Source: an uncultured Poribacteria bacterium
GTDB lineage: Bacteria; Poribacteria; WGA-4E; WGA-3G
Assembly (NCBI GenBank): GCA_951813565.1
Contig: OX638351.1
Location: 2,240,001 to 2,304,000, forward strand
Direction: 5' to 3'
DNA length: 64,000 nt
The position numbers were made by a program. This document shows, one piece after another, positions 21,001-27,000 of this stretch (position 1 is the stretch's first letter; each line of letters begins with the position of its first letter).

Positions 21001-24000
21001 CTGATACAATAACTAGATAAGACAGAATGCCAGAAAAGCAACTCGCTTTTTTGTGTTCAATTAGGGGGTTAACAGCCCTCTAATTTCTTATCTAAATTGT
21101 ATCATATTTTCACAATTAAAACAAGCGAAAAATGTAGTCTACACAAGGATTTAGAGCGATTTTTAAAATTTTGTTGCAAGTCCAAAACTACTTATTGCGA
21201 AACTGTATTATAGTAAATTATGTAAATAAGTTCACATATATTCTGTAGGAGCGATCTCCGAATCGCGACGAAACCACTGGTAGTCGGGAATCGGAGTTCC
21301 CTCGGACAGCTCATACCAAATTACCCTAAATCGTAGGGGCGGGTCTCTGTGCCCGCCCTTACCATCGGCAATGAAAACAATGCAATTCTCGTTAATTTGG
21401 TATCAGATGTCCAGTTAATTGTAGAATCCACTATAATATGTGCTTTTTAGCGACAGCCGATTACCGTTGAATTATGTTCGAAAGGAGAAACATGGCAAAC
21501 AGTATTGAAAAAGTTGATCCGCAAACAACAAAACTTGGATGGATTGGTACCGGGGTGATGGGACGTTGGATGTGTCACCATCTTATGGACCTTGGATACG
21601 GTATGACTGTCTATAACCGCACCAAATCGAAGGCGGAACCTCTAATTGATGCAGGTGCAGCATGGGCAGATTCACCCAGCGAAGTCGCAGCTGCTTCGGA
21701 TGTGATCTTTACCATCGTAGGGTTCCCACCGGATGTCCGAGAGGTATATCTTGGTGATAACGGTATTCTGAACGGAGCAAAAGCTGGCAGCATTGTTGTT
21801 GATATGACGACAACTGAACCTTCTCTCGCACAAGAGATTTACGCCGAGGCTAAAGAAAAAAATGTTGCCTCTGTGGATGCACCTGTTTCAGGTGGGGATG
21901 TCGGTGCACGGGAAGCGCGACTCTCTATTATGGTAGGCGGAGACGAAGCTGCTGTGGAAGCAGTTATGCCGCTTTTCTCTGCTATGGGCAAAAACATTGT
22001 TCACCAAGGTGGTGCTGGGGCAGGACAACACACTAAAATGTGTAACCAAATCACTATCTCTGGCACGATGATTGGTGTTTGTGAAGGTCTAATCTATGGT
22101 CACAAAGCGGGTTTAGATCTGGAAACGATGCTATCTTCAATTAGTGGGGGTGCAGCTGCCTGCTGGTCGTTGGATAATTTAGCACCGCGGGTTCTCAAAC
22201 GTGACTTTGACCCAGGGTTCTTTGTAGAACATTTCATCAAAGACATGAGCATCGCTCTGGACGAAGCGAGAAAAATGAATCTGAGTCTGCCAGGACTCGC
22301 ACTAGTGCATCAGCTTTATACTGCTGTGCAAGCACAAGGACACGGACGTTTAGGCACGCAAGCTTTGTTGTTAGCATTAGAGCAGATGTCCGGGACAGAA
22401 GTAGGTTAATCAGACCATGCTGCCTGATGGTCTTCGGCAGTTGGCATTCGTTTTTTAGAAGAGGTTACATCTCTTTCCGATAAGCGAGTGTCAGCTGCCG
22501 AAAACTTTAAAACGGTTCTTTAGGATCCTAAACGCATCGGTGCTATAAAACATATATGTCCATCATCACCCATAGGTTTAACGATCAAAAAATTAAATTC
22601 TCCTGAAAACTCAAGAATGAGAGATTCCGTTTCAATATGTGCAAAAATCTCTGTTAGCCTATGTGCATCCAAACCGATCCTTACACTTCCTGTGCCGGAT
22701 TCCACAGCGACAGTTTCATGTGCCTCACCAAGTTCAGGTGTCTGGGCAGAAATCCGAATCTGTTCTGGATCTATTTCTAAACTGATCGCATAATTTTTCG
22801 GATTTGACAGTAAAGCGACGCGCCGCGTTGCACGTAAAATCGCCTCCCTTGATACAACTACACGGTTCTCAGAAGATTCCTGAAAGACCTTTTGATATTC
22901 CGGATAATCACCCTCTATCAAACGTGTCGTTAAGGTAGCATTATCATCAGTCAAAAGTAGTTGATTCTTGAGAAGTGAAATTTTTACCTCAGGGGAATCA
23001 GCAAAGGTGCGTGCAATCTCTTTTACAGCCTTCAACGGAACAATGAATCCGCTGCCATCTTCAGAGGCTTTGAGGGGTGAACAATGTACCAACGCAAGTT
23101 GATGCATATCGGTCGCAACCACTTCAGTTCTATCTTCAAGAAGGTTGAAAAAGAGTCCGTTAAGCTGGTACCTGAACTCCTCTGTAGATGCCGCAAATTC
23201 TGCTTTATGGATAACAGCACATAGTGCTTCCCCATCAATAGTTGTCCCCTCTCCATCGGCAGATGGTAGTTGTGGGAAATCTTCATCGGAAAGACCGATA
23301 ATCTTATAAACACCATCTCCGCAAGTGAGTTCAACGCGGTCATTGGCAGTCGTAACGAGGTTTATCGGTGTATTTCCAGGTAATTCTCTGACGATGTCTG
23401 TCAATTTTTTCGCTGAGACCGTAATTGTTCCTTCTTCTTGGATAGTACCAACTACCTTGATTTTAATGCCAACTTCTAAATCGGTAGCTGCTAATTCTAT
23501 GTTTCCGTTTTCAGCACGAATGAGGACGTTTGAAAGAATAGGCAAGGTGTTACGCCCACTTGCCACACCTTGCACAATTTGAAGAGCATATAAAAGATCG
23601 TCTTTTTCAAAAACAAGTTCCATATCAAGATCTCCTATTTTATAGTAGATTTTAGAATTACGTAGACATCTTGCACCAACGAGGTGAATAAACGCTGAAT
23701 ATACGTATGCCATTTGGTGTGGTTGAGAACGTGAAACCCAACACTTTTCTATCCAACCTACAATTATACTGAAATTCTTTTATCAAACTCACGTTAGGAT
23801 TTTAGTGAGGAGCGGATGCTAAACGCATTGGTGCTATGAAACACATATGTTCATCATCACCTATAGGTTTTATAGTAAGAAAACTAAACTCTCCCGAAAA
23901 CTCAAGTATTAGAGATTCTGTTTCAATATGTGCAAAAATCTCTGTTAGCCTATGAGCATCTAAGCCCATCCGAACATTTCCAGTACTAGATTCCACAGCG

Positions 24001-27000
24001 ACAGTTTCATGTGCCTCACCAAGTTCAGGTGTTTCGGTTGAAATTCTAATTTGTTCGGGATTTATCTCTAAACTGATCGCAAAACTCTTCGGATTTGAAA
24101 GTAAAGCGACCCGCCGCGTTGCACGTAAAATCGCCTCTTTTGATACAATCGCACGTCCCTCATAAGACTCCGGAATGAGTGATTGGTAGCGCATATCATA
24201 TTCACCTTCAACTAAACGTGCCATCAACGTGGCGTTGTCATCAGCAAAAAGAATTTGATTCTTGAGAAGTAGAATCTTAACCTCAGAGGAATTGGCGAAG
24301 GTCCGAGCAATCTCTTTGACAGCCTTCAACGGTACAATAAACCCGCTAACATCATCAGATGTTTTAAGGATAGGTCCGTGCGCTAAGGCGAGGTAATGCG
24401 AATCCATTGCAACCACTTCAGTTCTATTTTCAAGAAGGTTAAAAAAGAGACCGTTAAGCAGATATCGGAACTCCTCTGTAGATGCTGCAAATTCTGTCTT
24501 GCGGATAACAGAACACAAGGTTTCACCATCAATCGTTACACCTTCTCCATCAGCAGATGGCAGTTGTGGAAAATCTTCATCGGAAAGACCGATAATCTTA
24601 TAAACACCATCTCCGCAAGTGATTTCAACACGGTAATTGGCAGTCGTAACGAGGTTTATCGGTGTATTTCCAGGTAATTCTCTGACGATGTCTGTCAATT
24701 TTTTCGCAGAAACCGTGATAGTGCCTTCTTCTTGGATAGTACCAACAACTTTAAATCTAATACCAACTTCCAAATCGGTCGTTGCAAATTCAATGTTTCC
24801 ATTTTCGGCGCGAATGAGGACGTTTGCGAGAATAGGCAAGGTATTACGCCCACTTGCCACACCTTGAACTGTCTGTAGAGCATGTAAAAGTTCATCTTTT
24901 TCAAAAGAAAGTTCCATACCAAGTGCTCCTATTCATTTTGTATTATAGTAAAATCCCAAAATATGTTCACATTTCAATGAATCACAATCCCCACACACTC
25001 GCGCTAGCCAGGTTTCCTAACCTCGCCAATGTCCAGGTAATTATGGATTTCACTATAAGTATTTGATAGTAATACCTGTAATTATTGGGCTCCATTGAGC
25101 GCGTGCTTACTATTTTAGATTTGACTATAAAACGAATCACTCTGATTTACCAGGGTTATTTAGTTCTCTATATTTCTGACGCATTTTATCACATGCGTTA
25201 ATTTTTTATAATAGTATCGTCCGTTGGGTAGAGCGGAGCGAAACCCATAAGCGTCAACTTAAGAAAAAAATGTTGGGTTTTCTCTTGTGGGAAGGCTTTC
25301 TAAGCCCGATTTTGTGAGACCCAAGCCGTTAAATCGGGGTTGAAAACCCGACAAATGCCAAAAAGCGCATTTGGCGTTGATTTGGCAGCATGCCAAAAGC
25401 GCATGCTGCGTTGATTCACTCCCACAAGAAAGATTGGACGCTAAATTGACACCTATGGGTAGAGCGGAGCGAAACCCAACATTTGCACATACGTGTTGGG
25501 TTTCGCTCCGCTCTACCCAACGGACAATATAAACTTTCAGTAACACGCATCAACTGATAATTCTTAAAACTATAGTGAACTTTGAAATTATTGGGACACT
25601 TTGATAAACTTGTCTTGGAAAGATAATGGACAATAGAAGTTGTAGCACAAACTTTTAGTTTGTGCCTTATGAGACGCAAACTAAATGAAGATTAATTTAT
25701 TAATTCGGTAATTTTGGAGAAAGATCCAGTGCGGTTGGGAAACCGCACCTACCGGGTTTGGGAAAAATTAGAATTACCGAAATATTTTCTTAATCTTCAT
25801 AAAGTTTGCGCTACAGAAGTGTCCCATTAATTATAGGCTTTACTATAAATAGCCCTGCTGATTTACCTTGACAGATATTTGATTGTTTAGTATAACATAC
25901 TATAGAAAATATATCCATTCAATTTTCGCATCTAAGTTCTACAGTTTCAACAGAAACTGTGTCAGCATTTAAAACTTACCCTCCTACAAGAATGCATCAA
26001 ACAAACTTACAACCTTCGCGCGCGATTAAAAAACGGGCAGTGTTAATTGGAACTGTCTTGATCACTGCTAACAGTTACTGGATAGCTTATGTTGAAATGA
26101 TTTGGCACACTGCCCATCTGACAACAGTCGCTATGTCTGTTAACGTCATGTTTGGCATCTTCGTTATCACGATGCTAAACATGTGGGTTCGTAGTTTTGC
26201 GCCAAGTGCTGCACTTACACAGCGTGACTTAATTGTCGTTTACAGTATGCTTGCGGTTGGCAGCGCGTTTTCAGGACACGATTGTATGCCACGTCTGATG
26301 GGGCTTATTCCGTATGCTTTTCGTTTTGCTACTCCTGAAAATGATTGGGAAGCACTACTTTTTCATCACCTCCCAGAATGGCTCGTTGTCAAACATCCGA
26401 AAACAGTCAATGACTTTTATGAAGGTAACGTCAACTTCTTTACTGAAGGTTACGTGCAATATTGGATTGTTCCGATTCTTGCTTGGTCTGCTGTGATTTT
26501 TTTGTTGATGTTGATCTTTCTCTGTTTGACTTCTTTAATTCGCAAACAGTGGATAGAAAACGAAAAACTCGCGTACCCGATTATTCAGATTCCACTTGAA
26601 ATTACCACGAACAGTCGTATTTTCAGAAGTCGCCTGCTTTGGATAGGCTTTGGTATAGCAATGGGAATAAATTTACTTAACGGGTTACATTTTTTCTTTC
26701 CCATATTACCGGAAATTCCCGTCAGAAAATACAACCTTAATATGTACTTCACGCAGAAACCATGGAACGCGATGGGTAGCACGCCACTTCGGTTTCATCC
26801 TTACCTTATAGGTTTCTCGTTTATTCTGCCATTGGATTTAGCGTTTTCGTGTACATTCTTCTATTTAATGAAAAAAGTGCAGTTATTATTCGGAAGCGCG
26901 ACCGGGGTATCAAAGTTACAGGGATACCCATTTTTAGGAGAGCAGGGAGCAGGAGCGTTGTTAGCACTACTCGCTATAGCGTGTTGGCATGGACGAAAGC

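Follow-up and report, generated by a model that had tools for sequence, protein, structure and literature searches.

The window analysed here, a 64,000-nucleotide stretch of a contig from an uncultured Poribacteria bacterium, carries two adjacent genes for the sliding clamp DnaN (Table 1). Both copies, A (upstream) and B (downstream), are intact; they are 82% identical (303/368), and all three beta-clamp Pfam domains score above cut-off in each. The open frame of B extends to 23713; the ATG at 23623 has AGGAG 8 nt before it. In both genes the word TACTATAA precedes the ribosome-binding site. The promoter-like site near A is regarded as weak because 13 such sites were observed and 9.0 ± 3.0 are expected by chance. 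Only A was modelled; with 83 sequences its predicted structure has pLDDT 92 (only 54 with 23 sequences) and TM 0.92 to the B. subtilis clamp 4tr6.

Table 1. Features at the tandem dnaN locus, in window positions.
Feature	Position	Strand	Remark
3-hydroxyisobutyrate-dehydrogenase-like gene	21474..22409	+	convergent flank; outside the clamp system
dnaN copy B	22520..23623	-	367 aa beta clamp
C-terminal pocket strand of B	22529..22546	-	IAPMRL
Pocket hairpin of B	23096..23116	-	ATDMHQL
Ribosome-binding site of B	23632..23636	-	AGGAG, 8 nt before ATG
dnaN copy A	23802..24917	-	371 aa beta clamp; more altered pocket of the two
C-terminal pocket strand of A	23820..23837	-	IAPMRL; Ala in place of the gate Met; P363, M364, R365 retained
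Domain II-III linker of A	24186..24209	-	EGEYDMRY; pocket proline gone, one residue inserted
Pocket hairpin of A	24390..24407	-	MDSHYL (E. coli 172-177)
Ribosome-binding site of A	24926..24930	-	AGGAG, 8 nt before ATG
Promoter-like site near A	24942-24969		weak
DUF6785/DUF6784 gene	25959..27923	+	divergent flank; outside the clamp system

The pair lies about 300 kb from dnaA. The dnaA-dnaN-recF arrangement is absent here, and a transposase ORF sits between dnaA and recF. A 566-nt contig spanning both dnaN genes was present in four of four runs examined (two studies, one possibly the genome's source); the tandem is thus not an assembly artefact, and the first-pass annotation was right to describe two adjacent full-length clamp genes remote from dnaA. 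Neither tblastn nor the PF00712 profile found a third copy in the 5.43-Mb contig. As the assembly contains no clamps besides A and B, they probably load on DNA and stimulate Pol III. No biosynthetic gene cluster lies next to the pair; the flanks are the DUF6785 and dehydrogenase genes across the family, and in all six genera the DUF6785/DUF6784 flank identifies the place to which dnaN has moved. Tandem duplication is frequent in this genome, whose 4031 ORFs include 75 adjacent pairs, and IS families are active.

Most congeners are multi-copy, as had been claimed: tandem dnaN occurs in 34 of the 40 genomes of the genus, as pairs in 27 and as triples in 7. Three others have one copy at the locus and in three the locus is missing or truncated in the assembly. 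As a genus trait the expansion was drawn too narrowly; it is present in the genus, but it is family-wide and not always tandem, with at least two clamp matches in 103 of 109 family genomes. Other families retain dnaA-dnaN-recF; dnaN has left dnaA-recF in this family only. Clamp paralogues within the family are 62-97% alike, with repeated births and losses. A clamp with the ancestral pocket is found in 1/37 genomes of genus g1 versus 13/16 of genus g6 and is absent from this genome; that copy has been lost in G000, G130, G148 and G152. The M362 class is kept by 36 of 37 congeners and is missing here, so the classes do not form a stable pair. In four lineages every free clamp lacks the gate methionine. 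The single-copy genomes G101, G104 and G152 also have altered pockets; the only free clamp of G152 is of this altered kind, as is that of G101, G104, G007, G024 and G028 at the home locus. Two pocket types are therefore not obligatory.

The motifs of the partner-binding pocket are as first annotated. The hairpin reads AMDSHYL in A, ATDMHQL in B and ATDGRRL in outgroups; the C-terminal strand is IAPMRL in both copies and IMPMRL in outgroups. In E. coli numbering, A carries T172M, G174S, R176Y, P242D with one inserted residue, and M362A; B retains T172, P242 and V247 and carries G174M, R176Q and M362A. Of the canonical cleft (T172, G174, P242, M362, P363, R365), both have lost G174 and M362 and kept P363 and R365. 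Outgroup residues remain at 7/21 pocket positions in A and 9/21 in B (outgroup mean 19.6), nine of the 21 being putative pocket positions; the ancestral pocket is, as had been noted, in neither copy. Among g1 copies, a non-glycine six-residue loop accompanies A, S or G at 362 (36/36) and a seven-residue loop accompanies M362 (35/42); the one-residue insertion leaves column 174 ambiguous in 36 sequences. A copy with R152 plus a copy with P363 and R365 is present in 59/59 sampled genomes. P363 is missing in seven copies, all in triple arrays; such arrays include a pocket-damaged third class. Recent, near-normal tandem pairs occur in G149 and in G055; the earlier description names G037 for such a pair, but handles differ, and the pair so named here has an altered pocket.

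The head-to-tail dimer interface appears conserved in A and B. Judged by sequence only, they are identical at 25/25 putative interface positions, and 22/25 match the outgroup consensus. Interface dN/dS is 0.04 in g1, g6 and outgroups; it is 0.45 in fused clamps, which illustrate genuine relaxation. Such interfaces would permit mixed rings. Domain I is indeed most alike between the copies, with 11 amino-acid differences versus 30 in domain II and 23 in domain III. In quartets, silent sites often cluster by genome and amino-acid sites by paralogue class in 9/9 (for example 21 vs 15 and 6 vs 34). Gene conversion evidently levels silent sites between copies; A and B seem partly homogenised, and domain III of B looks partly homogenised with A.

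The motifs of clamp partners are unchanged. The clamp-binding motifs of DnaE, delta and MutS are canonical, the delta motif being a putative one placed by its position; in this genome the motif reads QMNLF in DnaE and QMALF in MutS. The canonical DnaE motif had been pointed out before, and Q-x-x-L-F is found in 79/80 loci. Co-evolving DnaE or delta motifs can be rejected as both are unchanged; the clamp loader is not duplicated, and holA is single-copy in 60/61 genomes. PF00817, for a Y-family polymerase partner, was not found in this 95%-complete genome, and no partner with a changed motif fitting a new pocket was found.

Selection on pocket codons was analysed in 79 g1 clamps on a tree made without these codons. 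Pocket dN/dS is 0.46 on branches between paralogue clades and 0.045 within them. The several long-lived clades reported earlier are supported; the clades used here were picked with the motifs already known, and 2/10 fail to be monophyletic in the tree that lacks pocket codons. Elsewhere in domains II-III there is no shift (0.12 between, 0.12 within). The pocket shift was matched by 0/2000 conservation-matched site sets and reached in 0/60 no-shift simulations (maximum LRT 4.4). The synonymous rate of pocket codons is higher on stems (1.66 vs 0.87); the ratio is still 0.30 vs 0.04. A second genus, g6 (36 clamps), repeats the burst and subsequent hold: pocket dN/dS is 0.073 in the ancestral copy, 0.367 between clades and 0.063 within, and the rest gives 0.13, 0.19 and 0.17. 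On deep outgroup branches the pocket value is 0.032. Across 75 paralogue pairs, 53% of pocket sites and 26% of other sites differ, against 11% and 33% in outgroups; parsimony places 129 changes at pocket sites in g1, 62 in g6 and 17 in outgroups. In 4/5 recent or near-normal pairs (G039, G055, G102, G103) differences show no excess in the pocket. Pocket-focused divergence, as originally proposed, is supported, with the qualification that over the whole tree pocket variability does not exceed that of the rest of the protein (0.12 vs 0.12, rank test p=0.06) and is raised only relative to its normal value of 0.025.

Pervasive positive selection can be rejected: no site class exceeds 1 in g1, g6 or outgroups (M8 vs M7 LRT 0). 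The branch-site test is not significant (best value 1.0-1.4, p 0.05-0.5). In the fused-clamp set, a weak positive signal at 0.4% of sites (p 0.004-0.014) falls mostly in a gappy loop and is not trusted. The earlier worry about relaxed selection is partly answered by purifying selection on new pockets within clades, but dN/dS above 1 is not established. Because the pocket burst was followed by a hold, left the rest unshifted and recurred in g6, plain decay of the pocket is unlikely.

In E. coli, one cleft is reported to be enough for loading, Pol III and viability (PMC2685083, PMC3022782), and a clamp with P363S is lethal by itself but complements when it is part of a heterodimer (PMC4045847). 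A and B would be ring-forming clamps, probably co-assembling into AA, AB and BB rings. With rings common to both copies, damage to the fold, the dimer interface or the DNA channel would harm all rings and still be selected against; since one of the two clefts per ring would suffice, only the pocket of a new copy would be released. It would then evolve at about the neutral rate and be fixed again once better for some partners, or once the other copy had drifted. The cell would end up with clamps of differing docking preference for unchanged Q-x-x-L-F partners. We infer expression, mixed rings and different partner preference, and consider this reading, in which one working cleft is enough and the pocket is freed and then re-fixed, slightly on the probable side. 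The subunits of Sulfolobus heterotrimeric PCNA are partner-specific. It is conceivable, if somewhat doubtful, that this Poribacteria family has natural mixed beta-clamp rings, with two clefts ranking partners differently. Such rings would be the bacterial analogue of heteromeric PCNA and would have arisen again and again, the supposedly invariant pocket having been exchanged altogether in some lineages while partner motifs stayed constant.

The pockets may instead have escaped pocket-binding antagonists (phage or toxin proteins, transposases, sponge-microbe peptide antibiotics), still accepting host motifs and shedding foreign binders, with spare copies permitting jumps and acting as a hedge. 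The many independent changes at the same sites counted by parsimony, a pocket that moves while host motifs stay constant, and loss of the ancestral copy in four genomes agree with this. SocB (PMC9690074), IS transposases (PMC4549789) and griselimycin are all known to target the cleft; griselimycin binding is about 100-fold lower after a gate methionine change in one clamp (PMC11621423). IS families are active in this genome. However, the long stasis within clades is unlike an ongoing arms race, neither site-class nor branch-site tests support it, no antagonist was identified and no biosynthetic cluster lies beside the genes; escape is rather unlikely.

Extra copies might also replace lost origin-linked expression, with pockets drifting and settling into equivalent shapes (a large residue at 174 with a small one at 362). 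Equivalent pockets would be expected to be homogenised; pocket differences instead last across species although conversion wipes adjacent silent differences, and paralogues differ disproportionately at pocket sites. This makes dosage with compensatory drift distinctly improbable, even with the departure of dnaN from dnaA-recF in this family only, the covariation of the 174-loop and 362 in g1, a stem dN/dS near 1 that fits release rather than drive, the sufficiency of a single altered clamp in some genomes and the 75 tandem pairs. That one copy is a decaying spare is largely refuted and hardly credible: the frame, ribosome-binding site and interface of A are intact, its clade holds its pocket across species (one pocket difference among 39 and 74) and within-clade dN/dS is 0.05, against which stand the loss of T172 and P242 in A and the damaged third class in triple arrays.

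The Poribacteria clamps share with canonical DnaN (E. coli 1MMI, B. subtilis 4TR6) three domains, fold, dimer interface, DNA-facing basic residues and L177/P363/M364/R365. Unlike it, they are multi-copy and remote from dnaA, and each paralogue clade has its own replacements at pocket positions 154, 174-176, 242-247, 323, 344-346 and 362. Bacillus anthracis also has two chromosomal clamps; either DnaN-1 or DnaN-2 can support replication and repair duties are proposed to be divided (PMC3290774). That pair is about 40% alike and one member is canonical, whereas the Poribacteria copies are closer, show repeated births, losses and conversion, and often leave no canonical pocket; in this genome no canonical DnaN-1 coexists with a second clamp. 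GriR and other dnaN genes in antibiotic clusters are tied to pocket-binding compounds (PMC11621423, PMC10760148); in contrast, the Poribacteria genes are native duplicates without an adjacent cluster, and alteration extends to the main copy. Sulfolobus heterotrimeric PCNA and 9-1-1 likewise have paralogous subunits but are fixed heteromers (PMC9690074); with identical interfaces, any mixing in Poribacteria would be a matter of chance and not obligatory. A literature search with thin coverage of subscription papers turned up no report of several dnaN genes in Poribacteria; one listed paper, PMC12482716, contains both terms.

In this sponge-associated family, the clamp copies appear alike at the ring joint, with a docking pocket that has apparently been repeatedly rebuilt and then kept. 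The clamp cleft is regarded as nearly invariant across bacteria and hence as a drug target. Here a single scaffold carries some ten naturally occurring pocket designs that selection has maintained against unchanged partner motifs, and with these the ranking of partners by a hub pocket could be tested directly. The retained interface and rebuilt pocket point to mixed rings in which the two docking sites differ; natural asymmetric rings, if true, would test the two-cleft 'toolbelt' idea and show how divergence after duplication of a homodimer can be limited to the surface made redundant by co-assembly.

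The genome carries two adjacent full-length beta-clamp genes, as the first-pass annotation had stated: an upstream (A) and a downstream (B) dnaN copy lie head-to-tail, each with three beta-clamp domains, and are 82% identical. No other clamp was found in the single contig of 5.43 Mb, which is rated 95% complete. AGGAG lies 8 nt 5' of the ATG in A and likewise in B. Six runs contain the stretch, no RNA run among them, and a contig spans both genes in all four runs examined. Modelled from 83 sequences, A has the structure of a normal clamp subunit (pLDDT 92; TM 0.92 to 4tr6).

Features of the locus, of this genome (G000, contig C1) and of loci extracted from relatives (L numbers): name, position, strand, remarks
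dnaN copy A	window 23802-24917	minus	three beta-clamp domains
dnaN copy B	window 22520-23623	minus	three beta-clamp domains
Intergenic repeats 5' of A	window 24940-25060 and 25150-25860		about 35 to >200 genome matches
Shorter intergenic repeat between A and B	window 23640-23700		
IS1595-family transposase	window 20081-20959	minus	at least 12 genome copies at 99-100% identity
1076-aa ORF	window 14277-17507	minus	by eye, resembles ECF sigma factor with long repeat-rich C-terminal extension
HolA (delta)	G000:C1:1248370-1249779		about 470 aa; long insert behind first domain, throughout family and outgroups
DDE transposase L393	G000:C1:1964562-1965917		between dnaA and recF, the place of dnaN in other families; present in genome as 3 full, near-identical copies plus a split one
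Sigma-FtsZ-DnaE fusion ORF	G000:C1:3818096-3822403		1435 aa
Sigma-clamp fusion	L148:2821-4578	plus	
Sigma-clamp fusion	L144:2634-4391	plus	
Sigma-clamp fusion	L149:3751-5502	minus	
Sigma-clamp fusion	L145:2773-4506	plus	
Clamp-FtsZ fusion	L226:1066-3186	minus	C-terminal tubulin and FtsZ_C domains
Clamp-FtsZ fusion	L228:1426-3507	minus	C-terminal tubulin and FtsZ_C domains
Very divergent clamp	L143:3373-4527		27-30% identical
Very divergent clamp	L153:3507-4679		27-30% identical
Very divergent clamp	L154:3108-4277		27-30% identical
Very divergent clamp	L155:3560-4717		27-30% identical
Single clamp of G048	L246:2549-3925	minus	458 aa; adjoins dnaA and recF; long domain II insert; similar in G047
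Clamp domain I-like N-terminus with DUF4159	L247:1372-3120	minus	outgroup genome; four others have similar frames of 570-590 aa

Among 40 genomes of the same genus (g1), 27 have a tandem pair and seven a triple, which bears out the claim that most congeners carry two or three copies; three have one copy at the locus, and in three the locus is cut or missing from the assembly. At least two clamp matches, fused and partial ones counted, occur in 103 of 109 other family genomes. Outside the family, among 36 of 58 listed genomes, two full-length close copies occur in G055 only. The neighbour of dnaN is dnaA or recF in outgroup loci and a DUF6785 gene (the home locus) throughout the family's six genera. 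In a second genus, g6, the home locus holds a near-ancestral copy in 13 of 16 genomes fetched (64 in the genus), and a second locus holds one or two altered copies. The home copy is gone in three genomes, G130 (rearranged), G148 (93-residue remnant) and G152 (clean deletion), which speaks against a fixed system of two parts; in G152, searching turned up just one free (unfused) clamp, an altered one.

Full-length clamp domains numbered 183 after 17 partial matches had been dropped; five below 33% identity were then removed. The final set comprises 78 clamps from g1, 36 from g6, eight from four small genera, 21 fused, 25 near-outgroup and nine far-outgroup clamps, and that of E. coli, whose numbering is used. 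PMC11703123, PMC3335792 and PMC11621423 supplied 12 of the 21 positions of the pocket, where partner proteins dock. Pocket, interface and DNA-facing lists were fixed after the alignment had been viewed. The remaining nine pocket positions come from general background on beta clamps, as do the interface and DNA-facing lists.

Of the 21 residues that make up the outgroup pocket, A retains 7 and B 9; the mean is 19.6 for outgroup clamps and 9.1 for g1. G174 and the gate methionine M362 are lost in both copies, and neither has the ancestral pocket, as was claimed earlier; both retain R152, L177, P363, M364 and R365. They agree at all 25 positions of the interface list. Among 37 g1 genomes, every one but this retains an M362 copy, and a near-ancestral pocket occurs in G025 alone.

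Pocket dN/dS is 0.12 in g1, 0.16 in g6 and 0.025 in outgroups; the rest of the protein gives 0.12, 0.16 and 0.085, and the listed interface positions 0.04 in all three. Across the whole tree, then, the pocket of g1 and g6 does not count as hypervariable (rank test, p=0.06 for g1 and 0.47 for g6); what it has lost is its usual extra constraint. Site models give no class with dN/dS above 1; our own codon likelihood agreed with the IQ-TREE value. When branches are split on a tree made without pocket codons, g1 pocket dN/dS is 0.46 between paralogue clades (long-lived groups of duplicates) versus 0.045 within them, while the rest stays at 0.12 in both; the clades were chosen after the fact, and two of ten are not monophyletic once pocket codons are masked. 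None of 2000 matched random site sets or 60 simulations approaches this shift. The same pattern is seen in g6 (0.367 between, 0.063 within, 0.073 in the ancestral copy); deep outgroup branches show no such shift (0.032). A branch-site mixture places about one tenth of sites near dN/dS 1 on between-clade branches, with no significant support for values above 1 (p 0.05-0.5). Its top sites fall in the pocket in 9 of 12 or 10 of 16 cases for g1 and in 4 of 11 for g6. Column 174 is blurred by an insertion in the alignment, and silent change in pocket codons is also raised on stem branches.

The tree of domain I places A and B as sisters; those of domains II and III do not. Silent divergence between the two copies is 0.21, 0.38 and 0.24 in domains I, II and III (0.29, 0.23 and 0.30 between A and an orthologue), so gene conversion has partly evened out domains I and III between them and not domain II. 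Homogenisation of domain III may explain why both carry IAPMRL. Amino-acid sites group by paralogue class in nine of nine quartets; silent sites group more often by genome in six, by class in two, and tie in one.

DnaE keeps a canonical clamp-binding motif, as previously proposed: Q-x-x-L-F is present in 79 of 80 loci. The holA gene is single-copy in 60 of 61 genomes, and its product shares one YP-x-M segment across 29 family loci and the majority of the 10 outgroup loci. The MutS motif is QMALF; like motifs in DprA, uracil glycosylase, two type III restriction subunits and a methylase are among 36 pattern matches, many due to chance. MutL of this genome has no clear Q-x-x-L-F motif, and no Y-family polymerase (PF00817) was found in the whole genome (95% complete).

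Relatives also contain fused and divergent clamps. An ECF sigma factor is joined in frame to a full-length clamp at 19 loci in g1 and g6 (five Pfam-checked); this fusion is not present in our genome. Listed interface and DNA-facing residues decay in these proteins, a GGAG-like word and ATG persist at the clamp start, and the fusion is broken in several genomes. The clamp-FtsZ fusion occurs in two g2 genomes, each with a normal clamp besides. In G002, G007, G024 and G028 the very divergent clamps lie directly 3' of an ECF sigma gene that is free; three of these genomes have one home-locus clamp.

Our preferred explanation, which we hold by a slight inclination, is that the copies co-assemble and that each ring has a cleft to spare. 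Fold, interface and channel would be held under selection in predicted mixed rings, the new pocket would be released because the ring has another cleft, and the altered pocket would then be retained for a differing partner ranking. In E. coli, according to PMC2685083 and PMC3022782, a single cleft per ring is enough for loading, Pol III and viability, and both help unloading. Alteration of pockets to escape foreign cleft binders is possible and on balance unlikely; dosage with compensatory drift is less probable still, and decay is very improbable.

PMC11621423 and PMC4045847 report that E. coli growth requires R152 and P363. In each of the 59 family genomes sampled, some free copy retains R152 and some free copy retains both P363 and R365. 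Each of 19 R152Q copies has an R152-bearing companion, and the seven copies without P363 are confined to triples.

Second clamps are already known, namely B. anthracis DnaN-2 (PMC3290774) and GriR (PMC11621423, PMC10760148), as are heteromeric PCNAs (PMC9690074); our literature searches found no paper on clamps of this Poribacteria family. To these the locus adds clamps that turn over repeatedly, a burst of change followed by stasis that was measured and is confined to the pocket, and lineages without any ancestral pocket.
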